DNA of 64,000 bases from contig OZ316899.1 in NCBI GenBank assembly GCA_973895155.1, positions 11,001,135-11,065,134 of the forward strand, in the 5' to 3' direction. Shown here one piece after another: positions 4,723 to 48,052 of the stretch (its first letter is position 1; the number at the start of each line of letters is the position of its first letter). Source of the stretch: Marsupella aquatica. Taxonomy: Eukaryota; Plantae; Marchantiophyta. The position numbers and the translations under genes were made by a program. The notes under the pieces were generated by a model. That model ran no database searches. It saw only the letters and a list, made by a program, of their open reading frames with translations, and was not told the DNA's origin.

Positions 4723-7700
4723 TGTTGCCAAGGAGGTTGAGAGCTACATATCAAGAAATGGGCTTTGTGATGCCTAGCCAGGAATCACTCGACTAGTTTA
4801 AGTGGAATTGGGAAGTGTACCCTAGAAACACCTTAGTATAGTTACAGAAATAAGAAAATATAAACAATTAAGGGTGACTATGGAACCCGAGCCGAGACCG
4901 GAAGTAAGGACACCAGGGGAGAGAACACGATTAGGGTTAGGGCACGATAAATGCTGGCGGCTAGGGGTCACCAACGGGAGAGAAACGCCGAGGAGGAGAG
5001 GGGTAAGGACCGCTCGCAAAGAGTTGTGGCTCATTTGCAGGCACGAACTGGGCAGACGACTACGGGCGGCCAACTACTATCAGTTGCTTAAGCAAGCACT
5101 CAGGGGGGGAGCAGATACCGACTGTCAACTCGATAAGGGTATGAGCAACGTCAATCAAGCGGCACATTTTTGGGGATGCCTGTTCGAACGGGCAACTGAG
5201 TACATTGGGACTTACAAGGACGAAGAATCGGAGAGAGCAGCTCGAGAACGGCAGGAGCTCGCTCGATTGTGGGAGCTGCAGAAAGCTACCTTCTTAGGAG
5301 GAGAACTCAGCAAGGCCAAATTCTTGTGGACTCCTACTACCAATCAACTCGACGACCTTCTGTTTTGCGAAGGCAAAGTCATCGGCATCCTCAAAGCCAT
5401 CAAACGCTGCAACGACCTACACTGGGAGTTGAAGGGTAGCACGGAGGGGTGGACAAAGGCAACCGTGCTCGGAGAGACATCCACGGCAGCCGAGATGAAG
5501 AGGAAGGGAATTAACAACGACGAGGCCACCCCGGCAAAAAGAACGAGGTCGGCGGCACCAAAGAAACCAACCGAACAGCAGAGCAGGAGGCAGAGAGAAG
5601 CCGAGGAGGAGGAGGTCGACCCCATCAACGCCATTCCAACGAGAGATGACACCTGGAAAGGCTGGGCGGCGATCCTCCCCAAGGAGGTCCAATTACACTT
5701 TGCAAGAGAGGAGGATGCATGCTTTACGGCTATGCAGACTCGGAAATATCAGGGCTTCATGGCCGGATCCGGCTTGGAAGCCTTTGTAAGGTTACCGTGG
5801 CTGAAGCCGGAGGTGCCAAATTCAGACTTACTAGAATTCGTGGGATCATGGGAGTCCGAGACCAATTCCACAAGGGTGTATGGGAAGGAATTCTATCTCA
5901 CTCCCTAGGTGATTGCCGAAGTATTTGGCTTGCCGATGGGCAATAAGACCAAGGTAGATACCAAGAAGACCTTGCCAGACACGGAGTTCAGGTCGTTTCC
6001 AGGGCCTTCAACAAAGAATGGTTTTTTCCGTAACACTTGCACCAACCCGCATATAGGAGAGATTATCGATTTCTTGCGGGTGACCATGCATTGCAACTGG
6101 CCGAGAGCAGAGATCGGCAAGGCACAGGTCTATCTGGCAGAGAGGCCAGACCCAAGCCGAGACTACAACGGTTACCTCCTCACTCAACTAAAGAAGATCT
6201 TGAAGGAGGAACAGCTGGTGATTGGCAAGGGAAGTGTATCCCGGCTTGGCTATCACATGCCGCTATTGTGCCGGTATGCCTGAAGTAAGACCTTTGCCCC
6301 GGTACTTCCCCTATAGGCAAGGGCACCAGAGGAGGTTCCGGAATAGAGGCCGGCAATGGAGAAACCTAAACCGCCCGACAGTCCTACAATCGAGCAGGTG
6401 TTTAGGCCAAGGACGGAGGACTTGCCAATGCAGCAACCAGGCATGCAGAATCTGCTGAAACTGCTGGAGAAAGAAAAGAGAACGGCTATGGCATCGGTAA
6501 CAACAACAACAACGGCAACAACAACAATATAGGACACTGCTCCAAAGGTAGGCCTAAACCGGCTTACAAGGGAAAACCCCTTTATTGGAGTCAAGGAGAG
6601 AAGGAGGCCGGAACACGAGCCGGGAGTCCGGATGTATGTAGGAGCCTCTAGTCCCAAAGCCGAAGAGAAGCAGGCCGTAGCTCCCGGCCCCGACAAGGAG
6701 AACAAGAGATCAACACGGAAGCCGGAGGAGGAACCAAGACCGGCAAGAGGAGAAGCCGTGTTCACAACAAAATCAGGAGAACAGCGGGAGAAGCCGGTAG
6801 TCCAAGCCGAGGAGGAGGCGGTGGAGGACTACAGCAATGATAACTCCGGCTACGGGACGGATCATCATGTTCCAGGAGTAAGGACATGTGGCCCGTTTAT
6901 CCCCACACTCCCAAGAGTAGTCCGAGGGGACCCAAGCCAGCAGAGCAGCCGTGAGTCTCCCCCGCCAGATGTCGCTCCCCCAAGCTTTGATGGCATAAAA
7001 CAGACGGCGCAGGAATTTCAGGAGTGAATGAGGGAGGAAGAGGAGGCAGCCCTAGCTAGGGAGAAGGATTTACCAGGAGGAGAATGGCCAGAGAACATCA
7101 GACGGCTTGCAGAAAAACGAAGCAGCCCTCCGGCCATGATAGAGGAGATCCGCAAGGTGGCTTGGGAACAAATGCCGCGGTGGATGATGCCGATGACTTC
7201 TACTTCCTCCACCTATGCTAAAAATAGAGCCATGGAGTATGGGGAGATGTGTGGAGAACTAGCGCTCAGCATCTTTGGGGAGGAGTTGGAGCAGGGACCC
7301 TTTTTCCAGAGGGAGATGTTGGAGAAGCGCCATTTAGAAGAAGCAGTGGCCTTGGAAAGAAGCAAGAAGGACGAGGTCATCCGTCGGCTTAGGGAAAGGG
7401 AAGCCGAAATCAAGGACCTAAGGGCGGCCAAGAAAGCCCAAGATGAGCTGCGGATTAAGCGGCATGAGCTAAATATCATGCACGGCCAGTTGGATACCGC
7501 ACAGTCTGATAATCGGATGATCGAGAATCTACTGACGCAGACCCAAGGAGAGTTGGCCGATGCGATCAAGGAGCGGGAGAAGTGGAAGCGAGAGCTGAGG
7601 GATGCAGAGGAGGCCCACATAACAGCCAACAACCGGGCCATGGCGGAGACCCAGAGAAGGGAAAGGGCGTTGAAGGGGGAGCTCGAGGTTATCCGCGGAG

Positions 7701-9488
7701 CCCTTAAGCAGAAGGAGGCTGAGTTAGGGAAATCCTATCAAGGGATTATTGCACTGTAGCAGGAACTTGCGTCCCTGACGGCCAGCTTCAAGGCCGACCT
7801 ATGGGAGAAGGATGACCAGCTCGACCAGACTTATGCCAAGATGAATAAAATGGAGTCTGAGGTTGTAACGGAGCTCGACAAAGAGCTAAGAGCAACCTAG
7901 GAGGAGAGGGCTACCTTGAAGAAGGAATTGGAGGAAGCCCACAGGGAGCTGGAGGAAGCCTAGAAAGAACTGGAGGAGGCGCGCAAGGACCTGGACGAAG
8001 TACAGGAGGAGTTGGAGGAAAGCACGCGGAAGCTGGAGAACTTACAACGGCGAGCCGACAACCAAACGGAGCGGCTGAAGAAACAAGCCGCAGTAATTAA
8101 AGGCTTGGCTCCATCAGGCCCAACTCCAATTGGGGCAACCAAGTTACCAGGAGTGGTACTGGCCGAAGAACAAGCCGCGCCATTTGCACTAGTATCGGAA
8201 GTAAGTGGGAAGGGGAAGGGGCCAGCTGCCAAACCAGAAAAGAAGAAGAAGCGGAAACCTTCAGGGTCAGGGAGTAATACGGCTCCACAGGCCGTGGTGA
8301 CCAAGGAGGCAGACCCAGCACCGACCCCAAGCAGGGTCACGGCAGAGGATCCAACTACCCTAGAAGCAGGGGATGACGAAGCCGAGGCTCAGGCTGAAGC
8401 CGTGGGTGATGCCGAAGCTGGTGCCGAGGCCGAAGCCGAAGGTGGACCCAGTCAGGCCGATGGAGAGTTGACTCAGTCAAGGGCAGGTAATCTGTCAGAG
8501 AACGAACCTACGGCAGTGGCTGAGGTGGAAGCGTTGGGGGCGTCCACTGAGGAATAGACACCGCTGCCATGACGGTGGTGGAGGGCCGCTCCTTTCAGGG
8601 AGGGCGGACGTGGAGGGAGGAGGCGTGAGTGGGCAGGGCGGGCTCGGATCTCTAAGTTTAGGATTAGGATCAGGACCAGGAGGCGGCCCTGACACTTAGC
8701 TTAGTGGGATTGCGGTTCCACTGGTAAGAGCAACACTTGTACTCCTACCTTGCTGTACATAGGTAGATTCAGTTAGGTAGATTCGTTAGATAGATTTGGC
8801 TTACGCTGCAAGGAATTAGGCGGATCCGTGTCCAGGATAAGTACCTGGGCAGCGGGGAGTTCAGGGCCTCTTCTTTAGCAAGTTTTTAGTTGCACCAGCC
8901 GGGCTGGGATCAAGTAGTAAGAGAAGCTCTCGGTTAGTCATACAATGACCCTTGTGTATATTCATGTTTCCTCATGCCTAAGAGCTGAATAGAGTTGGCC
9001 TCACGGCTTAGTTCGCAGAGCTTGTGTATGAGATGTACTGTTTGTATGGCAAGTGCATGGTATGACTCAGTCAAAAGGAGTCATTTTGCTATTTGTGTGT
9101 CGCATTAACTTGTGTGAAGAGTGCCCACATCAACTAATAGATGAAGGAAAGTAAGCAAGGGAGTGAGAGTTGGATGTGTCGAGCTGAGAGAGGTCTTAGC
9201 GGCTTAACCAAGCCTATTGGGGATCATTCCGGCGGCGGAATCCAAATATACCCAACCAGAAGGAGAGGAAGAGAAGGGAAGGCCCAGATTAGGCCGGCTA
9301 CATATCTCATGACCCGATGAAGGATCTGTCCAGTATATGTGTGTAAAATGTTAATAGTATAGTAGAAGGAGGTTAGCAGCGTCCCATGCCACTAAGCCGC
9401 AAAAACAGCCTCGCCAAGCGCGAAACCTGCAGGAATCGGCTTGTGTTGGGGGGTTTCTTGGGTTTAGGGAGCCATGGGACGCACCACA
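4723..9488 (+). mobile_element. 4.8-kb insertion, probable coding solo LTR
   Basis: Removing it restores the transposase frame. Termini TGTTG...CCACA, but no clean 5-bp TSD; alternatively a TTGCCA direct repeat at 4725-4730 and 9491-9496. No gag/pol. Its ORF is homologous to the one in the solo LTR at 44073-48052. Confidence 0.65.
4874..8557 (+). pseudogene. ~1200-codon single-frame ORF (plant-transposon-protein-like domain plus long coiled coil) broken by in-frame stops
   Basis: ORFs starting at 4874, 5909, 6632, 7028 and 8012 are all in the same frame. Core: FMAGSGLEAFVRLPW...LLEFVGSW...TRVYGKEFYLT..IAEVFGLP...NGFFRNTCTNP..EIIDFLR. Confidence 0.8.
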
Positions 9489-15207: not shown

Positions 15208-15280
15208 TGCTCTATCCTCTCCTCCTCATAAACACTTGCTCCTCCTTCAAGTAGAAACTTGCCATTCTCCATTTCCTTAC

Positions 15281-15476: not shown

Positions 15477-17070
15477 AGGGGCACCATTGACAGCTCCAAG
15501 ACGACCCTTCCAGATGTCAAGACGCCCGTCGGGGGCGGCCGACCGGGCTCCGCTCTTTGTCGTAGGAGGAGGGGGAGGGGGAGGAGGAGGAAGGGGTGTA
15601 GCAAGGAGTTTAGGGGAATTGGAGTTGAGGGCCGCACGACGACGGCAACGTGGAGAGGAGGAGGAAGGGGCGAAGCAAGAAGTTTAGGGGAATTGGAGTT
15701 GAGGGCCGCATGACGACGACAACGTGGAGAGGAAGTCGGTTGGAGGAGGAGGAGGAGCAGCTGCGAGGGTGAGGAAGGAAAAATGCAGCACAGGGAAGAG
15801 CAGTGTCAAAATGAACAAGCCGGTGGGTTTAGAACTCGTGCAGCAGCAGCAACAACAACAGAATAATGCAATATGTTGTGCGGGCGCGATTCTCCGTGCG
15901 ACAGTTTTGCGTGTGTGTTTGAAGGACGGAATTTCATTAAACAATAGTTTCCAGGGGGTGCACAAACAAGATTGATCTCCGTCGCAGCGCAGTGCATTGC
16001 ATTGCATTGCAAGGGGTCGGTTGGCCAGCTACGTAGCCTACAGTGTTGTGATATGTGGAGTCGAGAGGGAGGAGTGGTCTGTTGGTTTGAACATATTGTT
16101 GCCCTGCATGCAGTCTTTCAGGATTTGAGTGTAGAGGAGAGATGTCCTATTGGCGTGAAGCTCCTATTTCGACGTTCGAGTGGCGGGGCGCGTTTATATG
16201 CTTGGAAGCTGCTGCTTCGTTGGATTGTTGTCGGGATTGAGCCATAGTACTTGATGTCGTTTCGATCTAGTGGATTGATTCATTCATTTTATGAAATATT
16301 ATAGAGAAGTTTCAGAAGTGCATACTGGAGGAGAAAAAAGTAATTCACTGTTGATGCACTGCCGCTGATTGGTGAGCTGGCTCCACCTCTATCAAGCTCA
16401 AAATAGAGAGCAGGAAGCTTCAATGCCAACTAGAGGTCGAACTGTTTCTAGAGTAGTGGTTTAGCGGGGAAAACCACCACGATCAGTTGATCCTTCTCCG
16501 AGGAATCCTGGACAATAGATGACATCTAGAGCAGTATAGTGAATTATTGTCGTCGAACAGCTGGCGTCTGCATGTTGCCTTCCTTCCCAACCTCCGGATC
16601 TTGCCTCATTGCTCTCTGTACATGTAATCTGTTGAGAGAGGTCTAGTTGTGCGTCGAAGTACGTTCTTGTTTCACATGTTGCATTATTGTCGTGGATACT
16701 GGACTCGCTGTGACGGGTACCCCGTCACGGGAAGTCACACATAACTGGTTGCAAAGGCCGATACCTTGTTAATAGTCAATGTAAATAAGCCATTTTTTAA
16801 TTTTTAGTTAATTCCGTCATTATAGGTTGATGATGCCCCAGGTGACTTTATATTCTTTCTCTCATAATAGTTCTAAGATTTGCGGCGACCTAAGTGGGCA
16901 AATATTTTGGGACCTTGAAACTAGCCAGGACCAGCCCCATAGGACTTACCGTTTTGCTTCAAGAGCTATTGTTGAGACCCCCATTGCAAAGTCAGGAGAG
17001 GGGGGGGTTTTTTTTAAATAAATCCCTCCTCAGGAGGGCGAGTCCCATTAGTGGCCGTCCGAGAGAAAGA

Positions 17071-17395
17071 GGGGCTGCCTCGCGAGCCCATAGGGCTGCG
17101 TGCCCGGGCGATTAATGGGGCTCCGCGAGCTGAAGGGGCTGCCTCGCGAGCCCATAGGGCTGCGTGCCCGGGCAATTAATGAGGCTCCGCGAGCTGAAGG
17201 AGCGCAAGCGAGCGGGGGGGGGGAGTTAAAGGGCCTCCCGCGAGCTGGGAGGATCACGCGAGCGGGGGGGAGTTAAAGGGCCTCCCGCGAGCTGGGAGGA
17301 TCACGCGAGCGGGGGGGAGTTAAAGGGCCTCCCGCGAGCTGGGAGGATCACGCGAGCGGGGGGGAGTTGAAGGGCCTCCCGCGAGCCGGGAGGAA
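17071..17395 (+). repeat. GC-rich tandem repeats in the LTR (two ~65-bp units, four ~47-bp units); copied at ~27765-28090
   Basis: Unit gcgagcgggggggagttaaagggcctcccgcgagctgggaggatcac starts at 17208, 17258, 17305 and 17352. Confidence 0.9.
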
Positions 17396-17816
17396 TGGCC
17401 GCGCGCCCTGCATAGGGCCGCGCGCAGGAGGACGCAAGGGTAAGGCCCGAGAAATGGGCCGGGGCGCATGGCGAAGGCGCCAGGAGTTTTTTCGGTTCTA
17501 TTTTTTTTCCTTCCTTTTTCTTTCCCTCTTCCTTTTGCACGACCCTCTCATTGCCGAAAGCAAAAACGGGGTTCTTCTCTCTCTTGCCGGAAGCTCTCTC
17601 CAGATTCTAATTATTTTTGAAGCTCTCTCTTTCATGGTGGATTAGTGGGGCTTGCTGGCGTCATTCTTCCAGGCATTAGTGGCGGCCGCACGGAGTAGTG
17701 ACGGGAAATTGAGAGAATTTAAGTGATCGGGCTACGGGGGCTGTTTCGGGCCAGGGAATTGACATTGCCACGGGTGACGGGATTGGTGATTGAGAAATTG
17801 ATTTCGGGATGCATGG

Positions 17817-19673
17817 ATGCTAGATCAACCAGAGTTTAGTGCGTCACGCATTCGGAGATACAAGGCTGCTTACCGTGACTACGTGGAGACTCGGATTACA
17901 CGGGAAAGGGAAGAGAGAGAAGTTATGATGAGCACGGGATTGGCAGCGGGTTCCTCACCGGTGGGTAGGAAGATTTTTCGTCGAATTTATCCCAAGACCT
18001 CCACCAAGGTGATGGAGGATTGTCGGAACATTTTCCAAGCCACCGGGCTTACAGAATTCATGAAGGTGGAGATTACCATCCCTTCAGGGAAGAGCTGGGA
18101 CATTGAGGCCGGGATGGAGTTCCGAACGGAGGGAATCTACTTTGAATGTCTCAAACGTGTAGTGCCCCATGTGGAGTTGGCTAAGCTATTGTTTCTTGAG
18201 AATCAGAAATTCTCATTCACACCTCGGAATATCAGGGGAGAACTCACGTTGAAAATGGTGGCCACTTGGGTGACCAATCCTACCTCCACCACCGCCATCC
18301 CTCTTTCTGCTGTCAAGGATGTTGAGTATAAGGGCTTCCTGGCCAAGGTGCATCAACGGGTTCTTGGCAACGTGCAATCCGGAGTGCTGAATGAGGAGCA
18401 TTTCGTGGTAGCTATGGACATCAAGAACTACCCAGCCCATGTGTACGGATGGTGGTGCTACGGATTGAAGAAGCTATTGGCCGCTGAGCCCGGGAGTGTG
18501 AAACCAGGTGGGGCTGTACATTTGATGGGGTCATTTGTATTGGCCAGGGCAGAAGGGTTGATTGGTTCTCCGGGGCATGAAGACACGGGATCATCTCTCA
18601 CCACGGAGATCCGGAGTATTGCCACTACCGTTTTAGGGAAGCTCACGGAGGAATCATTGTCTGCTGGTGGGGAGGATAATAGAGAAGAAGAGAACCAGGA
18701 GGATGATTGCACATTGGAGTGGCTTGAATCACTCGTGGGAGATCCGAAACAGCCTCTGGAATACAACATTCCGGATGTTTACTTGGCAGAGCTACGGGAT
18801 TTCAGAGAGGGAGTCCACGAGGGACTCAAGCTAGTCCACGCATTGAGGGAGTCTCTCAAGCACGCCACAGTCAAAGTAGAGACGTTAGAGCAGAGCATCC
18901 TGTCACTGAAGGAGGTGATCAAGACCAAGGAGCAGACCATTCATGAGAAGGTCAGGCACATCAATGCAGCTCACGTAGAGATCACCAACTTGAAGGGAGC
19001 TTTGTCCACCAAGGCCAAGGAAGCAGAAGAAGTAGGAGCGTTGAGGCAAGCATTGGCCAAAGAGAAGCAAAATTCTGGAGAAGTGATGGAGTGGAGGAAC
19101 CAGGTGGGAGCACTACGGAGTCAGGTGGCAGCCTTTGAGACACGAGCGAAGAGAAGTGAGGCCCTGAGTCTAGGGAAACGGAAGAGTCCCGGCACACCTG
19201 GCTCCACACTTTCCCCGGATGTGATCTCCCAAGCTATCGAGATGGTGGTGAAGGAGGTTAGTGGGAAGTATGGACCCTTGTTGGATGGAGCCAAGAAGAG
19301 TCAGGAGAAGAGTAAGAGCTTGGAGAAGAAGCTCCGGGAGGTACGGAAATCGTTACGGGAGGCTCAGGTCAGTACGGGGATGCCACCCAGGTCTGTCACC
19401 CCCGGGACTCCCATGGCCACGGGGCAAGTTCTACCGTTGGAGTTGCGGTCCGGAGAAGAGGCTACCCTCTGGAAGGACACAATTGGTGAGGGGTACATCA
19501 AGGCGTGGCAGGCCTTGGCTGCTTTGAGGAAGCGCGGGAGCAGCAGCACTAAGAGTACTCCGTCGAAGAAGAAGAAAAGTACGGTGGCACTCACTCCCGT
19601 GAGTGATGAGGAGGAGGACCACTCACGGGGCACAAGTCCGGGCACCGAGAGCGAAGAAGAAGAGGAGGATTAG
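17817..19673 (+). CDS. 618-aa LTR-encoded protein of unknown function (globular N half, coiled coil, basic/acidic tail), copy 1
   Basis: Intact ORF entirely inside the 5' LTR. NLS-like PSKKKK and an acidic C-terminus. Confidence 0.88.
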   Translation: MLDQPEFSASRIRRYKAAYRDYVETRITREREEREVMMSTGLAAGSSPVGRKIFRRIYPKTSTKVMEDCRNIFQATGLTEFMKVEITIPSGKSWDIEAGMEFRTEGIYFECLKRVVPHVELAKLLFLENQKFSFTPRNIRGELTLKMVATWVTNPTSTTAIPLSAVKDVEYKGFLAKVHQRVLGNVQSGVLNEEHFVVAMDIKNYPAHVYGWWCYGLKKLLAAEPGSVKPGGAVHLMGSFVLARAEGLIGSPGHEDTGSSLTTEIRSIATTVLGKLTEESLSAGGEDNREEENQEDDCTLEWLESLVGDPKQPLEYNIPDVYLAELRDFREGVHEGLKLVHALRESLKHATVKVETLEQSILSLKEVIKTKEQTIHEKVRHINAAHVEITNLKGALSTKAKEAEEVGALRQALAKEKQNSGEVMEWRNQVGALRSQVAAFETRAKRSEALSLGKRKSPGTPGSTLSPDVISQAIEMVVKEVSGKYGPLLDGAKKSQEKSKSLEKKLREVRKSLREAQVSTGMPPRSVTPGTPMATGQVLPLELRSGEEATLWKDTIGEGYIKAWQALAALRKRGSSSTKSTPSKKKKSTVALTPVSDEEEDHSRGTSPGTESEEEEED

Positions 19674-20804
19674 ATAGGCGTACGGACGTGGGTGTACGGC
19701 CTCCAGATTTCCAACATTTTAGTGGGGGGTCACTCATGGGCTTGTTGGGATGAGCTCGCGGAGCTGATTCCAACAAGAGGCGGCGCTCCTCAAACGGAGC
19801 CAGGATGAGCAAGTTATGGCCTGGAGAACTTATGTTTTTGCGGTACGGAAACGGCCATAACTCAGGCGTCTGAAGTCCGTTGAGGGAGCGACTTAGTGAT
19901 TCGGAAGCAGGAAAAGAAGAGCTATCCAGGGGTGAGCTCAGGTGTGCACTTGGAAGGGCACCTAGTTTCGGCCATTTTGGGGTGCCTCTCACTTTCAGGG
20001 TTCACGTGTACTGTTGGGGCGCCGTCGAAGGCACCGTCGGCCCCCTTGTTTTGGGTTTAGGGTTTTAGCAGCATGTGTGTGCCGCATGCTCCTCTTCAGT
20101 TTAAGGATTTCTCTTAGTGCAAGGTTTTAGCGGCGCCGCTAGGGTAGCCGCCACCGTTGTGACCCTGTGAGGGGTGCTTTGGTGTGATTTTTCAGTATTT
20201 AGGGGGATAGCCCCGAAGTAGTTAGGGGGACTCAGTGTGAAGTTAGCAAGGAGGGATAGAGTGGAGCCTGAGGAGTTTGAAAGCGTGTTCAGAGTAGTGA
20301 GGGGGAGCCATACTCATTGTCCGGAGAGGCAGGAGTTGAGTAGACGGCAGGAGGCCGGGTTACTCATGCAATGTGTATCGTTTTTCCCAAGAGATATGGA
20401 TCTGTACATTTGACTTGATGGGCTTTTGTTGTGTGTTCCTTCTCCCTTTTTCGCTTTCCGAATTGTGTTCTCCCGTTCTATGATTTGAAGAAACTTGCTT
20501 GGTTTGAGTCGGCCTTGTGAGTAGGGGTGGTGACAGCACTCTTTGGGTGACTCCGAGTGAAGGTGTAGTGGGGTAGTCGGCAGGACTTGATCAAAAGCTG
20601 TGGGGTGAGGGTAGTCGGTAGACTTGATCAAAACCTACATTTCCGGGAGCGGAAACCAAAATACTCATCCTGGTGTGAAAAGAATCCAAATAGCGTCCCT
20701 CCACGACCCCGTAATACGATACCAACGGTTTAAGCGAAGAAAAGTGCGGTTTGCACGTATTAACCGTTGGAGAGGCAAGTGACATAAGTGTGGTCTTTTG
20801 TTTT

Positions 20805-20822
20805 TGGCGCCGCTGCCGGGGA
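20805..20822 (+). promoter_or_regulatory. Primer-binding site, tRNA-Asp type
   Basis: TGGCGCCGCTGCCGGGGA versus the Athila-type PBS TGGCGCCGTTGCCGGGGA. Confidence 0.85.
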
Positions 20823-21039
20823 ATCCTTCTTCTTGTTTGACGACACGAAGGAGGGGAGCTACGTCTATTGGGAGTTCAAACCTATCAACCACAACGCAAC
20901 TTGCGACGGTTGATACGTGAGAAGTTTGTTGGTTACTTTGTTATTGTACGTCAACCACAACGCATCGTGCGACGGTTGATGTTTACAAATATTGCTTTCT
21001 GAGACATTGGTGTAAGTTTGGAATGCAGGTCTCAATGGG

Positions 21040-24000
21040 ATGCCGAGAGGGAGAAGGGGAGGTAGAGGAAGTCCCCAACACACACGTACCCCAAGATCAG
21101 AGCTAGAAGGGGGGCCCTCTTGGATTGGGACCAGACGACGAGTTGCTGCCGAAGAACGCTTACGGCTTGCAGAAGAGAGGAGGTTGCCACTGGTGCTGGA
21201 AGAACAAGTTGGTGTGCAACAGGAAGAGGCTCAACGTAATGAGGCCATATGCCCAGACGAAGAGCCAGACATAGATCACGAGCGAGAAGAAGGAGAGCCC
21301 TTTGTGTTGGTGCAGTCTGAGTTACAAAATCTGATCCCAGAGCTCACTGCATTGCCACAAATCATCTCACACCTATCATCGGTGCTGTTACCGGTGGCCC
21401 AACAAGCGCCATTACCACCTGTGTTGATACAGGCACCGGCTGCACCGATGGCAGCTGCACAACGTACCCGTGTTCAGTACGTACCCTTCAAGGGGAGACC
21501 AAAGGATGATCCAGACGAATGGATTGAGGAGTTTGAAGGGATTGCCGAAGCTAATGGGGAGTCTGCACATAAGCTCACTATCATTCCTGGAATGATGAGA
21601 GGGGAGGCAGGTCCATGGTTCATTTCGTTGTTGGCCAACGTGAAAGCTGATTGGGCTCTGTTCAAGCAAGCCTTCTTGAAGGAGTTCAGATCCATAGGAG
21701 TGGAGGCCACCTCACTATTAAAGGTGGGCCAACTCAGGATGAAGAAGAAGGAGTCATTACGGAGGTTTTTGCAAAGGTTCCAAAAGCTGGTACGTCGGAT
21801 CCAAGCCCGTACCGATGATGCTATGCGTCAAGCCTGGTTTGTGGCTGCCCTACCAAGCAAGATGGGGTTCTTTGTACGTCAAGCCAAGCCAACCACATTG
21901 GCTGAAGCTATTGCAGCAGCGGAGTCATACACCGCAGCTGATGCCACAAGCAAGCGTTGCCGAAGAAAGAAGCTGAAGCCGGTTGACAGTTCCTCCAGTG
22001 AGGAGTCGAGTGGATCTGATTCAGATAGTAGTGATGAATCTGAGGATTCTGAGAGTACTACAGAGTCAGACACTACGGAGTCAGAAGCTGAAAGACGAAG
22101 GAGGAAGAAGAAGAAGTTGTCAAAGAAAGTCAAGAAGTCCTCTCACCGTGAAGTGATACTACCCACGGTGGCCGTTACACCATTGTCTACGGCAAGACGC
22201 CTGAAGGAGCAAGAGGCCAGATATGATGAGCTGACGGAGCAAATGAAAGCGTTGAAAGTACATTTTGCCGGACTCAAACCTGAGAGGAGAAAAGTTCCGG
22301 TGGAGAGAGCCAATGTGTGGTGCACCAAGTGCATGAAGTTTGGTCATGCCCCGAAGGAGTGCCCAGCGGGAGAACCAGCCAAGGTTTTCCAAGTACGGGA
22401 GGAGGATGTTGAGGGGGCAAGCTACTCAAATCCTTCATATGCAGCGGAAGGGCCAATAGAGTACTTCATGGAGGAGCCACCAGAGGCCAACGTGTATAGT
22501 GTACAACCTCTCAACCCGGGACCACGGAGCATTCATGGAGTTTCAACAAACGCCGGAGCACCCGCATACTCCAACTATCCCAACGCTAACCCAGGGAATC
22601 GACCACCGTACCCTGGAGTGAGGAAGATCCCTATTTGTTACAATTGTAGAGTGGCGGGCCACTACGCTAATGTGTGCCCAGAGCCCACCCGTCAAGGCAA
22701 TGGAGATTTTGCCCGGCTGTGTCAACTATGCAAGGGGGAGGGTCATCTTGCACCACACTGCCCAACCTTGGAGGCGTTCAAGGCTCAACCGATTGGGGCA
22801 CAAGAGAAGAAGGGGCCGCCACCTCCTCTGAAAGAAGCTAGCGTCAACTTTCTCACCACGGAAGCAGTCGACACCCCTCTAATCACTAGAAGAGAAGAAA
22901 CCGTAGTGAACATTCCCAAGCAAAGGATGACCACCATAACGGAGGAGGTGGTACCGCTAGTCGTTGTAGTATCTCCAGTTGTTGAGATACCGGTGGTTGT
23001 TGTTGCAACATCTACGGAAGTTGAAGTTGCTAACCCCTCACCCCCAAGTCATGAGTGGACTCATGCTGAGAATCTACCGGAGGAAGACAGCGACGAGGAG
23101 AGAAGGCATTACTCTTGTTACCGAGTCTCCACTCAATCCGGCAAAAAGAAGGGCAAGTCCGAGCTCAAGCAGAAGTACAAGGAGGTGCATCAAGCTTCCA
23201 CATCGGGTACCTCACACGAACCGGAGGTGCCACCCATGGAGGATAGTGACTTTGATCGGGACAACCCCAAGTTGTTCTATCCGAAGGTGGGAGAAGAGGT
23301 ACGTAAGCAGTTGGAGGAGCTAGAAGCACAAGCCATGCAAGCGGCCATTGACAAAGACATGGAGGAGGCAAAGGCCAGAAAGAAAGCGGAGGAGAGGGTT
23401 GTTCGTTGGAAACCGGGAGAAGAGGTCATCCCACCCATACCTCCTGCAACCGCGTACAACATTGCTCAAGACATTCTGGATTGCCCAGTCAGTGCCACAA
23501 TTGGTCAACTATTACGGGATAGCTCCCTATACCGTCGCCAAGTCAAGGAGATTCTCATGAGGAGGAGACGTAGAAGAAGGTTACCCAAAGTTGGGGCTGA
23601 CCCCATACAAGTCAACTGGGTCACGGAGGATTTGGGTGCCCCAGAACTCACGGTGGACATCAATGGATGTGCAATACGGTTTGTACCGGTGGACGGGGGC
23701 TCGGGAGTCAACATCATGACTGAGGAGACGGCAAACCGGTTGGGGTATACAGAGTTAGAACCACCGGCACGTGCCATGAGGTTGGCTGATGGTGCACGGG
23801 TGGTGCCGTTGGGGTGTCTCACCAAGATTCCAACAATGATTGGGGGAAAATCTTTCCCCCTCAACTATTTGGTGATGCGACCCGTTCGGCCGTACGGTTT
23901 TCCCATTTTAATTGGCAGGCCATGGTTGTATGTGGCCAAGGTCACAAGTGATTGGGGCAAACGGCAGTTTCGGTTTGGTATCCCCACTATCACTATTCCA

Positions 24001-27438: not shown

Positions 27439-30400
27439 CTGGTTGCAAAGGCCGATACCTTGTTAATAGTCAATGTAAATAAGCCATTTTTTAATTTTTA
27501 GTTAATTCCGTCATTATAGGTTGATGATGCCCCAGGTGACTTTATATTCTTTCTCTCATAATAGTTCTAAGATTTGCGGCGACCTAAGTGGGCAAATATT
27601 TTGGGACCTTGAAACTAGCCAGGACCAGCCCCATAGGACTTACCGTTTTGCTTCAAGAGCTATTGTTGAGACCCCCATTGCAAAGTCAGGAGAGGGGGGG
27701 GTTTTTTTTAAATAAATCCCTCCTCAGGAGGGCGAGTCCCATTAGTGGCCGTCCGAGAGAAAGAGGGGCTGCCTCGCGAGCCCATAGGGCTGCGTGCCCG
27801 GGCGATTAATGGGGCTCCGCGAGCTGAAGGGGCTGCCTCGCGAGCCCATAGGGCTGCGTGCCCGGGCAATTAATGAGGCTCCGCGAGCTGAAGGAGCGCA
27901 AGCGAGCGGGGGGGGGGGAGTTAAAGGGCCTCCCGCGAGCTGGGAGGATCACGCGAGCGGGGGGGAGTTAAAGGGCCTCCCGCGAGCTGGGAGGATCACG
28001 CGAGCGGGGGGGAGTTAAAGGGCCTCCCGCGAGCTGGGAGGATCACGCGAGCGGGGGGGAGTTGAAGGGCCTCCCGCGAGCCGGGAGGAATGGCCGCGCG
28101 CCCTGCATAGGGCCGCGCGCAGGAGGACGCAAGGGTAAGGCCCGAGAAATGGGCCGGGGCGCATGGCGAAGGCGCCAGGAGTTTTTTCGGTTCTATTTTT
28201 TTTTCCTTCCTTTTTCTTTCCCTCTTCCTTTTGCACGACCCTCTCATTGCCGAAAGCAAAAACGGGGTTCTTCTCTCTCTTGCCGGAAGCTCTCTCCAGA
28301 TTCTAATTATTTTTGAAGCTCTCTCTTTCATGGTGGATTAGTGGGGCTTGCTGGCGTCATTCTTCCAGGCATTAGTGGCGGCCGCACGGAGTAGTGACGG
28401 GAAATTGAGAGAATTTAAGTGATCGGGCTACGGGGGCTGTTTCGGGCCAGGGAATTGACATTGCCACGGGTGACGGGATTGGTGATTGAGAAATTGATTT
28501 CGGGATGCATGGATGCTAGATCAACCAGAGTTTAGTGCGTCACGCATTCGGAGATACAAGGCTGCTTACCGTGACTACGTGGAGACTCGGATTACACGGG
28601 AAAGGGAAGAGAGAGAAGTTATGATGAGCACGGGATTGGCAGCGGGTTCCTCACCGGTGGGTAGGAAGATTTTTCGTCGAATTTATCCCAAGACCTCCAC
28701 CAAGGTGATGGAGGATTGTCGGAACATTTTCCAAGCCACCGGGCTTACAGAATTCATGAAGGTGGAGATTACCATCCCTTCAGGGAAGAGCTGGGACATT
28801 GAGGCCGGGATGGAGTTCCGAACGGAGGGAATCTACTTTGAATGTCTCAAACGTGTAGTGCCCCATGTGGAGTTGGCTAAGCTATTGTTTCTTGAGAATC
28901 AGAAATTCTCATTCACACCTCGGAATATCAGGGGAGAACTCACGTTGAAAATGGTGGCCACTTGGGTGACCAATCCTACCTCCACCACCGCCATCCCTCT
29001 TTCTGCTGTCAAGGATGTTGAGTATAAGGGCTTCCTGGCCAAGGTGCATCAACGGGTTCTTGGCAACGTGCAATCCGGAGTGCTGAATGAGGAGCATTTC
29101 GTGGTAGCTATGGACATCAAGAACTACCCAGCCCATGTGTACGGATGGTGGTGCTACGGATTGAAGAAGCTATTGGCCGCTGAGCCCGGGAGTGTGAAAC
29201 CAGGTGGGGCTGTACATTTGATGGGGTCATTTGTATTGGCCAGGGCAGAAGGGTTGATTGGTTCTCCGGGGCATGAAGACACGGGATCATCTCTCACCAC
29301 GGAGATCCGGAGTATTGCCACTACCGTTTTAGGGAAGCTCACGGAGGAATCATTGTCTGCTGGTGGGGAGGATAATAGAGAAGAAGAGAACCAGGAGGAT
29401 GATTGCACATTGGAGTGGCTTGAATCACTCGTGGGAGATCCGAAACAGCCTCTGGAATACAACATTCCGGATGTTTACTTGGCAGAGCTACGGGATTTCA
29501 GAGAGGGAGTCCACGAGGGACTCAAGCTAGTCCACGCATTGAGGGAGTCTCTCAAGCACGCCACAGTCAAAGTAGAGACGTTAGAGCAGAGCATCCTGTC
29601 ACTGAAGGAGGTGATCAAGACCAAGGAGCAGACCATTCATGAGAAGGTCAGGCACATCAATGCAGCTCACGTAGAGATCACCAACTTGAAGGGAGCTTTG
29701 TCCACCAAGGCCAAGGAAGCAGAAGAAGTAGGAGCGTTGAGGCAAGCATTGGCCAAAGAGAAGCAAAATTCTGGAGAAGTGATGGAGTGGAGGAACCAGG
29801 TGGGAGCACTACGGAGTCAGGTGGCAGCCTTTGAGACACGAGCGAAGAGAAGTGAGGCCCTGAGTCTAGGGAAACGGAAGAGTCCCGGCACACCTGGCTC
29901 CACACTTTCCCCGGATGTGATCTCCCAAGCTATCGAGATGGTGGTGAAGGAGGTTAGTGGGAAGTATGGACCCTTGTTGGATGGAGCCAAGAAGAGTCAG
30001 GAGAAGAGTAAGAGCTTGGAGAAGAAGCTCCGGGAGGTACGGAAATCGTTACGGGAGGCTCAGGTCAGTACGGGGATGCCACCCAGGTCTGTCACCCCCG
30101 GGACTCCCATGGCCACGGGGCAAGTTCTACCGTTGGAGTTGCGGTCCGGAGAAGAGGCTACCCTCTGGAAGGACACAATTGGTGAGGGGTACATCAAGGC
30201 GTGGCAGGCCTTGGCTGCTTTGAGGAAGCGCGGGAGCAGCAGCACTAAGAGTACTCCGTCGAAGAAGAAGAAAAGTACGGTGGCACTCACTCCCGTGAGT
30301 GATGAGGAGGAGGACCACTCACGGGGCACAAGTCCGGGCACCGAGAGCGAAGAAGAAGAGGAGGATTAGATAGGCGTACGGACGTGGGTGTACGGCCTCC

Positions 30401-31480
30401 AGATTTCCAACATTTTAGTGGGGGGTCACTCATGGGCTTGTTGGGATGAGCTCGCGGAGCTGATTCCAACAAGAGGCGGCGCTCCTCAAACGGAGCCAGG
30501 ATGAGCAAGTTATGGCCTGGAGAACTTATGTTTTTGCGGTACGGAAACGGCCATAACTCAGGCGTCTGAAGTCCGTTGAGGGAGCGACTTAGTGATTCGG
30601 AAGCAGGAAAAGAAGAGCTATCCAGGGGTGAGCTCAGGTGTGCACTTGGAAGGGCACCTAGTTTCGGCCATTTTGGGGTGCCTCTCACTTTCAGGGTTCA
30701 CGTGTACTGTTGGGGCGCCGTCGAAGGCACCGTCGGCCCCCTTGTTTTGGGTTTAGGGTTTTAGCAGCATGTGTGTGCCGCATGCTCCTCTTCAGTTTAA
30801 GGATTTCTCTTAGTGCAAGGTTTTAGCGGCGCCGCTAGGGTAGCCGCCACCGTTGTGACCCTGTGAGGGGTGCTTTGGTGTGATTTTTCAGTATTTAGGG
30901 GGATAGCCCCGAAGTAGTTAGGGGGACTCAGTGTGAAGTTAGCAAGGAGGGATAGAGTGGAGCCTGAGGAGTTTGAAAGCGTGTTCAGAGTAGTGAGGGG
31001 GAGCCATACTCATTGTCCGGAGAGGCAGGAGTTGAGTAGACGGCAGGAGGCCGGGTTACTCATGCAATGTGTATCGTTTTTCCCAAGAGATATGGATCTG
31101 TACATTTGACTTGATGGGCTTTTGTTGTGTGTTCCTTCTCCCTTTTTCGCTTTCCGAATTGTGTTCTCCCGTTCTATGATTTGAAGAAACTTGCTTGGTT
31201 TGAGTCGGCCTTGTGAGTAGGGGTGGTGACAGCACTCTTTGGGTGACTCCGAGTGAAGGTGTAGTGGGGTAGTCGGCAGGACTTGATCAAAAGCTGTGGG
31301 GTGAGGGTAGTCGGTAGACTTGATCAAAACCTACATGTCCGGGAGCGGAAACCAAAATACTCATCCTGGTGTGAAAAGAATCCAAATAGCGTCCCTCCAC
31401 GACCCCGTAATACGATACCAACGGTTTAAGCGAAGAAAAGTGCGGTTTGCACGTATTAACCGTTGGAGAGGCAAGTGACA
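27403..31480 (+). repeat. 3' LTR (4078 bp)
   Basis: Differs from the 5' LTR by two 1-nt homopolymer differences and one substitution that I could see (20641 T / 31337 G). Confidence 0.97.
28513..30369 (+). CDS. 618-aa LTR-encoded protein, copy 2
   Basis: Translation identical to 17817-19673. Confidence 0.88.
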   Translation: MLDQPEFSASRIRRYKAAYRDYVETRITREREEREVMMSTGLAAGSSPVGRKIFRRIYPKTSTKVMEDCRNIFQATGLTEFMKVEITIPSGKSWDIEAGMEFRTEGIYFECLKRVVPHVELAKLLFLENQKFSFTPRNIRGELTLKMVATWVTNPTSTTAIPLSAVKDVEYKGFLAKVHQRVLGNVQSGVLNEEHFVVAMDIKNYPAHVYGWWCYGLKKLLAAEPGSVKPGGAVHLMGSFVLARAEGLIGSPGHEDTGSSLTTEIRSIATTVLGKLTEESLSAGGEDNREEENQEDDCTLEWLESLVGDPKQPLEYNIPDVYLAELRDFREGVHEGLKLVHALRESLKHATVKVETLEQSILSLKEVIKTKEQTIHEKVRHINAAHVEITNLKGALSTKAKEAEEVGALRQALAKEKQNSGEVMEWRNQVGALRSQVAAFETRAKRSEALSLGKRKSPGTPGSTLSPDVISQAIEMVVKEVSGKYGPLLDGAKKSQEKSKSLEKKLREVRKSLREAQVSTGMPPRSVTPGTPMATGQVLPLELRSGEEATLWKDTIGEGYIKAWQALAALRKRGSSSTKSTPSKKKKSTVALTPVSDEEEDHSRGTSPGTESEEEEED

Positions 31481-36820: not shown

Positions 36821-36821
36821 A

Positions 36822-42640: not shown

Positions 42641-44072
42641 TGGTGAGCTTTTTCTCTCTAAATCCTACATTTGTTTCTAAATGAAAGGTGGGAGTACGAG
42701 TATTAGTCGTCTAAAGGGGGGAAGGGGTACAAAGTCACACTTGCTTTGACTCGTTTCCACACATGCATTGATAGGTACAACACACTTGGGAGGTACTATC
42801 AAGGCAATTTCTTTGGTACGAGGGGAATCCAAGTCCAAGCGAGTATGTAGCAGGAGTTTGTCTTCACCTCCTGAGTTTCTCACTCACACATTGTAGAGTA
42901 ATTGGGGCAGAAAAAATTTGAGACTCATTTGTTTACCAATTCTCACTCACACATTGTTGAGCTCTGTTTAGTCTCAAAGTGCATAGCTCAATTTTGCCAG
43001 ACTTTGTCAACCTGCAAATGAGGAGATCCGATGGAAGTGGGAGCACCGAGTCTTCTTTTGGAAGCACAGCTACAAGCGTCCTCCATCAACCTGGCCCCTC
43101 CCACTCAGGCCAACATGGAGAAGTCAAAAGAGGTCCCTGTGAAAGCCACCGAAGGACCAGGGAAGGTACGAAGAGAGTCAAAGATTAATGATCGAGCAGC
43201 ATTGTTGATGGAGCTCATGGAGTTTCAGCCAAAAAATTCAGAGGAGGCACGTCTGTTGGCAAGCATGGAGGATTCAGATGTTGATTTGGAAGATGTCGAG
43301 AGCTCCAATAAGGGCTCTGGGAGTGGAGACTGCTATGTAGTGTACACACAGCGCCCCCTAGTCCAAAGCGTCAACCTAGGGCTCGATCTTAAATTGTCTA
43401 TTGATGAGAAGCTCTCAATTTAGGTTTGTGGGCAGGCATTTACAACTTTAGAGTGCATAGCTCTCAAAGTTTAATTCCTGAATAGGGTTGGAATCGGGAA
43501 TGCTCGTGAGAGGTTTAGGAAGGCGGGTTGGAATCGGGAATGCGCGTCTCAGGGTTTCAGGAAGATTAGGATTTTGCACACATTTCCTACTTTATTAGGG
43601 ATTTTGCAATCAGGAATGCCCGTCAGGAATAGGACTATGGGCAACAATTTTGTAAAAGGTGACAGTTTTAATTAAATGAGGGGTTTTGGAATTCCATGTG
43701 TTTGCAATGTTGTTCTTAGTTTTGAGACAACAATTGACTATGGACAGCTTGACAATCACCGTTCAAAGAAATTGACTTCGTGTTCAGCTTGCAATCAAAG
43801 TTCAAAGAAGCAGTTTTTTAAAATTCATCAACATTGCACGTATACAGCAATGAAGCCATTCACGGCTACAAGGGCTACAACACTACAAACTGGCTAGCCA
43901 ATAAATCCTGGAATGAAAATGCAGGTGGAGAACCCTGAATTTTGTTCTCTAAATCTACATGCTCATTTGCTACACCGGTGCTGTGATTTGGGTCAACCGT
44001 GCTCTAAAAAAAACCGGAAATGAAGTTTGAACAACGACTGGAGCACTCGTTGACTTCTGCATCCTAGCTTTC

Positions 44073-47000
44073 TGTCATGCCGTAAGCTTCGTCCTTGTGC
44101 GGATTTTGGCTTAGACGGGCATAATCTTCATTAGTTTCGAGAGTTCAGGCAAGGAGGGATGTGCAAACTGAACCTTATTCCCGTAATCTAGTGCTAAGTG
44201 CGCCTATTCCTACATATGGAAATGTCATGGGTATAGTTTGTGTTCCGCCGCCAGAACGTACCTTAAGTTGATAGTTGGATCGACCTCGACTTAAGGGCTT
44301 CTAAGCCTTTGTAATGTCCACCTCCAATCTAGATCCGATGATACGGGTATCCAACCCGGGCCTGCAACCACCATCTGTAGCCTACACCCCATGCACGGCT
44401 CGGATGATGCGTTTGGCCAGGCATTCTCTACCCATATACGAGATTCATACATGCAACGAAACTCACTCACATACAATCTCGGTTTACACGAAGGAAATGG
44501 TGGGAAAAGACTTAACTTCAGAAACCGTCATACACATATACCCGGTTGACTCGACATCTCTTGAGTAAACAGGCCCAACGGTAGAGCGACATACACTACA
44601 ACGAAGCCCAACTTTGCAATCGCCCAACAAGCTTAGTTGTACCCTCCCTCCTTGGTATCTTTTACTCACAAAGGCCGGGACTCCCGGCACATCCTACGGA
44701 TACCCGGTTCTGAAACTAAAACCCCCCCTTGCCTCTATTGAGGGGTGCACTAAATACTAAGAGCCAGGGTCTGGACCAACCACGTGCTTGAATCTAAGCT
44801 ATCTCAAATTCTAAACTCTGCTAACTGTCAGGCCGTAAAATGACGTGTCTTATTCTAAGATTCTAACTACAAAGGTTGGTTGGATAGGACAGCGCCGCTC
44901 ACTAGTTTCGGCGCTTGTCCTTATCGCTTGACTATCCTATTCCTAACTCTATCCTAAACCTATCCCACCGCTAATGTCTGGCACGCTTGCTAGATCCGCC
45001 AGAGTTGGACTTGGAGCGGCCATCCCGCTGCCTTCTGAGCCGGTCGGCTTCCTGCTTGAGGAGTTGGACCTGGTCCAGCAGAGATTTGTTCTTTTGCTTT
45101 GCCGCGCCCATCTCCTCCGCGGCTTCCTGACATGCCTCTTCCAGTTGTTGGACGTTGCTCGTCAGCTTGTCCACCAACTGGGCCTGCTTTGTGGCTTCTC
45201 CTTGAAGTTGTGCCACTCCCACCTTTAGGAAGTCTATCTCGGCTGTATCTCGCTGGGCCCGAGTGTCAGCCTCCTCCACATCCTTTTGCCAAATGATGGC
45301 TTGTCCCTTCAAACTGTCAATTTGGGTTTGGAGCCGTACGATCTTGGCGTCCGTCTTGACTCCGGCCTGCTCTACCAAGATGCCCGAGCCCTAGCTTTGG
45401 CCACCTGATCTTCAGTGGCCGCTACCTGAGGCCGCAGCAGTTGGAGTTCAGTCTCCCGGGCTGCAACTTCGTCTTTCAGGTGGGTAGACTCAATCCGATA
45501 CCGCTCTATTATCTGCATAGCCTCAACTTGCGCATGTCCTGCCCGCACGGCTACAACCAACTCCTAGTTGAAGAATTAGCTAGGCCACCTTCCGTGCCAT
45601 GTACTCCCCGATATCCCGTGCAATTTGTTGAGAGAAGTCTCCCAGCAACCCATTCAAAAACGTGCCCGGTGCAAAGAGTTCCGGGCTTTCCACACTATGG
45701 CCCTCCGGGTTTGGGCAAGGACAAACCTCAGCTCGCGCGGGAGTTGGAGTGGTGACGTCTAGCCCTTGAAGTATGGCGGTAGAGGGGGTTGGGTTTTCTT
45801 GGGCTGGGCGGTTCTCCTGAACAATCGCGGAGGTTGGCGGGATGTCCTCTACGATTGCAGTCTCGAGCGCGGGTCCGGCCTCTGCCAGCCCGACTTCAGT
45901 TGCATTGACTTGGTTGATCGCGTCCAAGGTTGCGATAATTGCATCATCCGGTACATTTGGAGGGGCGATAGCGGCTGATTGCGGGGCCAGGGTAGTAGGT
46001 CTCACGGCCGCCAGACTTCAAGCCTTGGGCTGAGGTCGCCTCTCTTGGGCCAAGAATATCCACCATGATGAGGTCAGCTCGGGCTTGTTGATATGAGGGA
46101 GGCTTTGGCGGTCAAAATGGGCGTATCACTCGATGATGATTTTGATGTGGCTAGCAAAGTGCGCCTTCTCTCCGAGGTACAAAGTCTTCCTTCTCCGCTC
46201 CATCTCCTCGTGGAACTTCTTGGCGAAAAAGGACGCCCACTTCCTAGGCCGGTAGTTCTCGACCTAGATGACCTGGGCGGCAGATATTTTGCCCCTCAGT
46301 TCCATCATGTGGATGGCGTACCGCTGGAACTCCAGCTGTTCTGCTACCTCCGGGGTGAGGCATGTCCTCATCAAGAATCCGTTGTCCACTGCTCCCTCGG
46401 CTGGGAAGCTAGAGGACTGATACTTGGCTCCTTTGCCCCTGGGAGCCCATGATTCTACCCAATTTATTCCTTCGGGTAGGCCAAAGATCATCTTGAGACG
46501 TGCCTTGTTGAGGGACATCACCCTCCCGTGCACTCGGGTTTGTTGGCGGGCTTTGTCAAAGTTCTGGATGAACTCCGTCATGTCCTGCCCGTAGTACCTG
46601 CATCTATTCCAAGGAAGAGAGGCGAGGTGCTCAAACCCTTGGGTCTTCAGGTAGCATGCATGCTTGGGGTGGAGGATGTTTTTATGGACATTCTCCTCCA
46701 TGCAATGCATGGTCAGCTTGGCCACCGCAACTATGGCCAAAGGCAGCCCGGATACGGTTGTGGGTTCCTTTCTTGTCCTACCCCGAGACTGGTTCTCGGG
46801 GTGACTTGAAGAAGGGGACATCTCCCCATCCTCTCTATCGGGCGGCGGCAGCGCTACCGCCGTTAGCACTGGTGTTGGGGCTGCTACTATCACTGTGTTA
46901 TCCACTCGGGCTTGTGTGAGTTGTGTTGGGTTGCCCGGTGCATGTTGATTTTCACCTTGAGGTCGCCGGTTCAGGGGAGGGTGAGCTTCCTTGTCTTTGG

Positions 47001-48052
47001 AACTGATGTTCACCGCATTTACCACGGATCGCACCCAGAGGGGTGGTGCGGCTGGTGGTGGAGATTGGCTTGGCGGAGGCCGAGGTGGTGTTGGCGTGGG
47101 CACCAATGAGTCGGCGATGGTCGTAGCTAGAGGAGGCGCCATATGATTTAGCAAGTTTCAGGGGAAGCCGAGTGAGGTTAGGATGGATGTCTCACCCGTA
47201 GCTGCAGTACGAAACTGGTAGTTTATGGAAGCCTGGACTTTGGCGGGGATATGATTGAAGTGGTGTTGTTGTATGTCGATCGTGCTCGGGAGTGTGAAGA
47301 CCTTATTTGGAAGCCAAAGGAGTGTTTCCTAGAAACCGACGTACTTTGGGCCATCGAAGAAGTATTCGGAGATCTCGTTGGCACAATAGAGCTTGCTCTA
47401 GAATGGGAGGTTGAAAACTCTGTTATAGTAATAGCGCCCGACTAGGCGGATGAGTCGTTTGTACTGCCTTTCGGTTTTGTACCGGCGTGGGTTGACCTCG
47501 GCCAGTGACTTTGCTAAATGATTTCCAATGGATAGAAATTGAAGCCAAAACCAAAGGGCAGAACTGGACATAATCGTGACAGACATACAGGAAACGGCGG
47601 TGGGTGATTGAGGAGCAAACGAGTAAGCTGGGATTGAAGTTGGCGCAAAGGGTGAAGTGGTGGTGCTTCACGAGAGAATGGCCTGCCTTTTATACCCTGA
47701 GGGCTTGTCGGCCGAACGGTCCCTTCCTCCTTTTGATAGGCCGATCCTTTCACGCTTGTAGTGTACCGGCCACTCCGCAGGTTCGGGTTAGAGCATGTCA
47801 GTGAGCCGCCTCCTAAATTTGTTATACGGACCCGAGGGTGCCTCCCTACACGCTTGTGACTCAGAGTACGAATGGTGCTCTACCGCCAGCCCGAGCGTAA
47901 ATATTCCTTATTGACTAGTGATGTCCTAGTCGTGGTTACTACCTATTTTAGTGTCATTATGCTAATTATTACGGACTACTATGTCCCTAGCGCGCGTGCT
48001 AAGCACGGATTAGACCGGATCACTCATTAACCGCCGTGCTGGCGGCGTCAAA
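44073..48052 (-). mobile_element. Coding solo LTR, ~3980 bp
   Basis: Minus-strand termini TTTGACGCC (one change from TGTGACG)...GCATGACA resemble the intact LTR ends. Flanks CTTTC/ATTTC (4 of 5 match). No gag/pol. Confidence 0.8.
44971..47586 (-). pseudogene. Degenerate LTR-borne ORF homologous to 4874-8557
   Basis: YLKTQGFEHLASLPW...TEFIQNFD...TRVHGRVMSL...MIFGLPEG...NGFLMRTCLTPEVAEQLEFQRYAIH...ISAAQV, followed by a C-terminal coiled coil and basic tail. Confidence 0.82.

Follow-up and report, generated by a model that had tools for sequence, protein, structure and literature searches.

A liverwort Ty3/gypsy element with a gene in both of its long terminal repeats, and two likely solo repeats whose decayed genes have a predicted VANC/PMD-like domain

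In a 64,000-nucleotide stretch of DNA from the liverwort Marsupella aquatica (contig OZ316899.1; the whole stretch is called the window here), we identified an intact Ty3/gypsy retrotransposon with an open gene in each of its long terminal repeats (LTRs). The same window contains two insertions, units U1 and U2, each of which holds one long decayed gene. LTRs are regarded as non-coding, and solo-LTR formation is regarded as the route by which genomes delete the genes of retrotransposons. A gene of 600 to 1100 codons that is located within the LTR survives this recombination. We lean, by a modest degree, toward the interpretation that several Ty3/gypsy families carry a long sense gene in the LTR and that the gene of U1 and U2 encodes a DNA-binding regulator resembling VANC and the plant mobile domain (PMD), which may protect or activate its own family. 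The coordinates of all features of these units are collected in Table 1.

The coding LTR is demonstrated directly for the intact element, because the same open 618-amino-acid (618-aa) sense frame lies in both of its LTRs. Self-comparison returned a single long repeat pair, the two LTRs, which are 99.93% identical and differ by one substitution and two single-base indels. The gag-pol frame extends 36 nt into the 3' LTR, and a Pfam scan of the polyprotein matched neither a chromodomain nor an additional RNase H. Upstream of the LTR gene, the tandem repeats containing CGCGAGC form a candidate binding array, judging from their sequence. We take the primer-binding-site-like sequence behind the 5' LTR to be of the tRNA-Asp type. 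The TGG of this site (20785-20823) stands 20 nt past the LTR end, compared with the 0 to 5 nt used in the survey of PMC6317226.

A preliminary reading of this DNA made from the letters alone (the sequence-only reading) had described U1 and U2 as 4- to 5-kb insertions without gag or pol. This was borne out by tblastn and by the lists of open reading frames (ORFs), in which neither unit contained retroviral domains. Both units are discrete insertions, since contigs of other runs include empty sites that join their flanks: the U1 joint runs from 4761 to 9489 in three of the four runs compared (X1, X2, and X4), and the U2 joint from 44068 to 48054, likewise in three of four (X1, X2, and X3). These joints uphold the extent first given for U2 and the end first given for U1; the start proposed for U1, 4723, was 43 bp early, the joint placing it at 4766. 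Another boundary for U1, 4723-9498 with AGATA/AGATG as the duplication, was plausible at first and was ruled out by the same joint. U1 interrupts the Tnp2 gene of a CACTA transposon (Transposase_21 flank), and its termini, TGTGATG and CACCACA, are of the TG...CA type with a short inverted repeat. U2 starts with TTTG and ends in CA, 7 of 10 terminal bases are inverted-complementary, and its target duplication agrees at four of five bases. The sequence-only reading gave U2 the termini of the intact LTR; the 3' hairpin described below and the CA end are shared, and the left end reads TTTGACG.

A third insertion, unit U3, is likely a solo LTR belonging to a related family; it has no long ORF and has a non-coding core in common with U2. 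A start at 50642 was rejected for this unit, the target duplication being found only with 50938. Unit U3 is rich in GGGTTAG repeats and lies 534 bp from U2. Both units apparently sit within one Harbinger-type Myb/SANT-like gene, a label given from sequence (no Pfam match).

U1 and U2 resemble LTRs in their size and layout, in their termini and target duplication, and in carrying the shared 3' motifs, and by these sequence features they are very probably solo LTRs of two other families. In one contig of run X5, TTTTTGGCGC, which is 10 letters of the primer site of the intact element, stands immediately after the final base of U1, an arrangement consistent with a two-LTR copy that has lost internal sequence. 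Several points tell against our interpretation. The X5 contig is a single record that re-enters the last 130 bases of U1 and could be a rearranged copy, no paired parent of U1 or U2 around gag-pol was seen in the contigs of other runs, the duplication of U1 is 4 bp compared with 5 bp in the intact element and unit U3, and the left end of U2 is degenerate (TTTGACG, not TGTGACG). Behind the 3' end of U2, no primer-site-like sequence was present among the matches listed from the contigs of other runs. Both the unseen parent and the 4-bp duplication would also suit non-autonomous elements that are complete in themselves, or DNA transposons bounded by TG...CA, transposing as single units, as would the variant contigs spanning U1 (6458, 9094, 628, and 12888 on a 5.4-kb stretch, four runs). 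We nevertheless consider this origin quite improbable: neither unit contained a transposase, a long terminal inverted repeat, internal direct repeats, or terminal repeats of its own; an LTR proven to be paired has the same 3' hairpin; primer-site-like sequence follows the end of U1 in the X5 contig; and target duplications of 4 bp are found in 6.2% of LTR elements from plants according to the part of PMC6317226 available to us.

The decayed frames of U1 and U2 had been said to align clearly, and they do. Their core regions are 23.6% identical over 178 aa (blastp E = 6e-15), the alignment score of 162 was reached by none of 1,000 shuffles, and all five motif pairs originally quoted lie inside the alignment. 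Both genes are dead pseudogenes; that of U2 changes frame near 45580-45390 and is broken by 12 stops in one frame. A profile built from the N termini of seven relatives revealed a second common domain of ∼110 aa, the N-domain, and sets the likely starts at 5141 (U1) and 47571 (U2). The pattern FW...F.dG...L...LPG recurs in this domain in U1 (5150-5458, +), U2 (47248-47571, −), and liverwort relatives, with no Pfam match. The coiled coil that the sequence-only reading placed after the core domain was corroborated by coiled-coil-type Pfam matches, below cut-off, and by long helices in the predicted model of the 618-aa protein.

The family extends beyond the window. With a two-sequence profile of U1 and U2, 65 relatives were found at an E of up to 0.001 among 1.84 billion representatives. 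Species were checked for 20 of them, of which eight came from Calypogeia fissa and two from Riccia sorocarpa; those with a name were all liverworts. Open full-length relatives exist (e.g., P0067, 906 aa). A profile of 41 relatives matched U1 (E = 7e-45), U2 (E = 2e-54), and a relic at 36124-36441 (E = 2e-6). This relic, an old and distant core-domain relative, occupies 36124-36870 (+) and is followed by an acidic stretch. A word-based homologue search with the U2 core found nothing, and the metagenome contigs contained no locus for the member P0010. Two pairs of Calypogeia genes sharing a contig were considered as paired LTRs and rejected, their accession order being mirrored. Contig depth along U2 is uneven, with peaks over the conserved domain and the 3' block; it was left unused, as depth cannot rank gene parts.

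To the core domain of this family we assign, on the basis of its predicted structure, a probable VANC/PMD-like fold. The model, computed from an alignment of 52 sequences, reached a pLDDT (predicted local distance difference test) score of 93.7. The top Foldseek match was VANC21 bound to DNA (template modeling [TM] score 0.49, E = 1.7), and the 35 other rows had TM scores of at most 0.18. VIA-align, searching 48,161 chains, also ranked VANC21 first (Z = 7.0; root mean square deviation, 3.9; 173 of 189 residues), with the next match at Z = 2.2. This evidence has its weaknesses: the structural match to VANC21 is middling and short of a decisive score, with a Foldseek E of 1.7 and 10% identity; by the tool's own caution, best VIA-align Z values of 7 to 8 are common; and the family reaches no curated Pfam cut-off. 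We favor a real link because of the gap in Z to the next match together with the full coverage. Two weak leads came from other searches. A DUF1985 cluster at 0.88 agrees with the VANC direction, and so does Transposase_32 (PF20167), which four of the 52 members matched at an E no higher than 1 (best E, 0.006). In a separate Pfam scan, PF20167 scored 17 bits, where the cut-off is 45. PF09331 (VANC/DUF1985) was found in none of the 52 aligned members among the matches listed, nor in the other Pfam scans, and neither PF03078 nor PF10536 was among the Pfam matches listed. PDB sequence searches gave nothing significant, nor did a viral fold library, whose best match had E = 0.05 and a TM score of 0.29.

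All four LTR types in the window, with or without an ORF, share non-coding motifs. The hairpin TTC[C/T]G-N4-CGGAA occurs four times in the window against ∼0.23 expected, and all four sites lie within the intact 5' LTR, U1, U2, and unit U3, each 130 to 255 nt from the 3' end of its LTR type. On folding, the hairpin forms a stem in U1, U2, and unit U3. A search of metagenome contigs gave eight matches to the hairpin pattern, none related to the window by hidden Markov model (HMM), blastn, or tblastn. Behind the ORF, a TATA-like AGTA(T)TTAG module, of looser similarity than the hairpin, is common to the four types and is likely the core LTR promoter, as far as its sequence indicates. The LTR gene precedes a non-coding block of 0.9 to 1.1 kb, whose motifs are also present in unit U3, the unit without an ORF. 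This block would be an ordinary promoter-R-U5 core, with the gene situated in an expanded U3 region of the LTR. The gene may also have its own upstream promoter: TATAAAAG stands at 47694, 123 nt before the U2 gene start, and U1 has a TATA-like site at 4859; none in the intact LTR is canonical.

Whether the 618-aa protein belongs with the U1/U2 family is less clear. Its parts, an N-terminal globular region (∼aa 40-270), an acidic linker, a coiled coil (∼aa 320-520), and a basic and acidic tail, follow the order of those in the U1 and U2 proteins minus the N-domain, so that the same layout claimed for it was found; of the weaker similarity claimed along with it, the short motif IFQATGLTEFM alone aligns. 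Profile-to-profile comparison, which had been suggested as a check, gave no support. The hhalign probability against the family was 2%, the score against the family HMM was ∼1 bit, and a forced-profile z of 1.6 was reached by 10 of 150 shuffles and exceeded by an unrelated control (z = 2.8). Word-based homologue searches found no sequence relatives of the 618-aa protein, the N-terminal profile found no N-domain in it, and its single-sequence model, with pLDDT under 40 in the globular region, was too poor for a fold search. These results count against a common origin. By language model, the 618-aa protein falls nearest to an ATHILA cluster (17% of members) and a Transposase_32 cluster (56%), both at 0.83, a similarity that shuffled proteins attain one third of the time. 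We judge the chance that the 618-aa protein is a very distant member of the U1/U2 superfamily to be about even. The alternative, that the gene is unrelated and that coding LTRs arose by repeated capture of different genes with a convergent layout, would account for the lack of a significant sequence or profile match and for the missing N-domain, and we place it only a little below even. Set against it are the position of the best local match, which falls on the first motif of the family where expected, the identity of the language-model neighbors, and the equal lack of an N-domain in the family members P0048 and P0034.

The use of gene-bearing LTRs by several divergent families, as proposed at the outset, is likely. 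It is shown for the intact element and likely for U1 and U2, for which the paired repeats around gag-pol that the proposal implies were not seen in the contigs of other runs. In the mechanism that we envisage, an Athila- or Ogre-type accessory ORF would have entered the LTR as plus-strand priming shifted upstream of the ORF, with pol now leading straight into the 3' LTR. Both LTRs would then receive a copy of the gene by reverse transcription. The protein, composed of N-domain, VANC-like domain, coiled coil, and basic tail, might oligomerize through its coiled coil, enter the nucleus, bind a family-specific LTR sequence in the way that VANC attaches to the motif arrays of VANDAL elements, and counter silencing. 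Recombination between LTRs would leave one complete gene copy, which would subsequently decay, as in U1 and U2. The idea that solo LTRs scatter complete gene cassettes stands in principle only; here, both solo genes are pseudogenes.

Further observations count against a DNA-binding regulator of this kind. Motif arrays of the VANC type are missing from U1 and U2, the array being present in the intact LTR only, and the lack of a CGCGAGC-type array in these units speaks against a uniform binding model. Tandem repeats are, moreover, common in plant LTRs generally. Placement of the gene in the U3 region of the LTR relies on motif similarity only, and a common fold, here a predicted one, demonstrates no function by itself. 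The absence of arrays from U1 and U2 would suit a structural or chaperone-like accessory factor that serves particle assembly, nuclear import, or integration targeting without anti-silencing, comparable to env-like ORFs and 5' extra ORFs, which themselves lack an explanation. Long coiled coils dominate these proteins, and Athila-domain proteins are predicted to oligomerize by coiled coils, as stated in the accessible text of PMC13547354. We hold this explanation to be a minority prospect, given that the protein found as the sole clear structural match binds DNA sequence-specifically and that, in the sources available in part, host proteins with a related PMD fold act on chromatin. A bolder version of the regulator interpretation, in which liverwort Ty3 LTRs hold a VANC-type anti-silencing gene with its own promoter, fresh solo LTRs de-silence the family in trans, and the fold predates the angiosperm examples, seems to us unlikely. 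If true, each insertion would bring two gene copies, the host's deletion route would spread an anti-silencing gene, and the VANC/PMD fold would be an old retrotransposon accessory fold.

Table 1. Positions of the intact element, the likely solo LTRs, and their genes and motifs in the window
Feature	Position	Strand	Remarks
Intact, very young Ty3/gypsy element	16709..31480	+	5-bp target duplication CTCGC
5' LTR of intact element	16709..20784	+	4076 bp; TGTGACG...GTGACA
Tandem 64- and 47-bp repeats	17047..17400	+	11 CGCGAGC copies; upstream of LTR gene, intact element
618-aa open frame in 5' LTR	17817..19673	+	ORF list
Primer-binding-site-like TGGCGCC...	20805..20823	+	20 nt behind 5' LTR
gag-pol, single open frame	21043..27438	+	GAG, two zinc knuckles, protease, reverse transcriptase, RNase H, integrase
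Polypurine tract of intact element	27390..27399	+	From sequence
3' LTR of intact element	27403..31480	+	Self-comparison
Identical 618-aa frame in 3' LTR	28513..30369	+	tblastn 100%
Unit U1, likely solo LTR	4766..9488	+	4723 bp; TGTGAT...CCACA; 4-bp duplication GCTT/GCTT
U1 pseudogene	5141..8557	+	1138 codons, one frame, 9 internal stops; likely start 5141
U1 domains	N-domain 5150-5458; VANC-like domain 5723-6280	+	Then coiled coil, basic and acidic tail; profiles
Unit U2, likely solo LTR	44073..48052	−	3980 bp; TTTGACGCCG...CGGCATGACA; duplication GAAAT/GAAAG
U2 pseudogene	44971..47571	−	866 codons; start ATG 47571
U2 domains	N-domain 47571-47248; VANC-like domain 46689-46123	−	Then coiled coil; profiles
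Unit U3, likely solo LTR of related family	48587..50938	−	2352 bp; TGTGACG...GTGACA; perfect 5-bp duplication AAACG
Hairpin TTC[C/T]G-N4-CGGAA	9227..9240 (+); 20641-20654 (+); 44243-44256 (−); 48841-48854 (−)		One per LTR type
TATA-like AGTA(T)TTAG module	20193..20230	+	Behind ORF; similar at ∼8883 (U1), 44756 (U2), 49934 (unit U3)

The window as a whole is made of nested plant transposons. A SET domain at 4212-4550 (+), a short way upstream of the CACTA Tnp2 gene into which U1 is inserted, scored 25.3 bits, above the Pfam cut-off, and high contig depth at this place suggests that it is part of the CACTA element, as a transposon-borne histone methyltransferase-like domain. Between the CACTA genes, 2089-2987 (+) is a run of telomere-like GGGTTTAG repeats that show a higher-order unit of 135 bp. 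At 40321-40803 (+), a decayed integrase-like C terminus is followed by a PHD finger (E = 1e-10) at a place often taken by a chromodomain, and decayed fragments at 33067-34670 (+) include a weak match to a Plavaka transposase (E = 0.13).

Sense accessory genes in or overlapping the U3 region, and copied into both LTRs, are familiar from sag of mouse mammary tumor virus and from the overlap of nef in human immunodeficiency virus. Those genes are unrelated, much smaller, and belong to vertebrate retroviruses, whereas the genes described here span 600 to 1100 codons in a plant retrotransposon. Among openly available papers, phrase searches found no report of such a gene encoded in plant LTRs and no description of a VANC-like anti-silencing protein for an LTR retrotransposon.

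Among plant non-chromovirus Ty3 elements, extra ORFs include the Ogre 5' ORF with a plant mobile domain (PF10536), Athila ORF-1 (PF03078), and the Transposase_28 ORF of Retand, as described in the available text of PMC6317226 and PMC7264820. The liverwort elements resemble these in having a fast-evolving accessory ORF, a Ty3 element without a chromodomain, and very long LTRs, as well as weak leads to PF03078, PF20167, and PF09331, although no Pfam cut-off is reached here. In the same partial sources, the Ogre, Athila, and Retand ORFs are internal, located either ahead of gag or in the interval from pol to the 3' LTR; here, in contrast, the gene lies within the LTR, is present twice per element, and is left behind in solo LTRs. 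The intact element shares the Athila-clade trait of lacking both a chromodomain and an additional RNase H, a trait that also holds for Phygy and Selgy in the sources available in part. In the intact element, pol runs into the 3' LTR, leaving neither an extra ORF nor a long non-coding stretch of the Athila type between the two. Rice Retrosat2/RIRE3 has LTRs over 3 kb, an ORF0 of unknown function, and many solo LTRs; its ORF0 lies upstream of gag-pol and is treated apart from the LTR in the accessible part of PMC3485330, whereas the liverwort gene is in the LTR.

The closest structural parallel is VANC (DUF1985), the anti-silencing proteins of Arabidopsis VANDAL Mutator-like transposons (PMC5735166, available in part; structures PDB 9LNJ/9LNK), which bind motif arrays in VANDAL elements. 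The predicted core domain has its best structural match to VANC over the whole domain and likewise neighbors a coiled coil, and in the intact LTR a short CpG-rich word is repeated in tandem. The differences are a liverwort retrotransposon LTR rather than a eudicot DNA transposon, 10% identity, and an extra N-domain; DNA binding at a short family-specific motif and demethylation, both VANC traits, are conjectural for the U1/U2 family. A VANDAL-type Mutator-like origin does not match U1 and U2, which are LTR-like and without a transposase. The accessible text of PMC13547354 (2026) describes VANC as restricted to dicots and as a derivative of host MAIN-like proteins. A structural likeness is reported between VANC DUF1985 and the PMD of MAIN/MAIL1, and PMD-A is reported to be carried by Gypsy elements of angiosperms, with the order of origin left open (PMC5418596; bioRxiv 10.1101/2024.09.27.615353; both available in part). 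The liverwort genes differ from MAIN/MAIL1 and PMD-A in the lack of a PF10536 match and in their position inside the LTR. What appears to be new here is a large multi-domain liverwort family with a predicted structural link to VANC/PMD. That predicted fold is the first concrete functional lead for such an LTR gene, and a transposon-borne version in liverworts bears on whether the PMD fold originated in Gypsy elements or in host genes, a question raised in the accessible text of PMC5418596.

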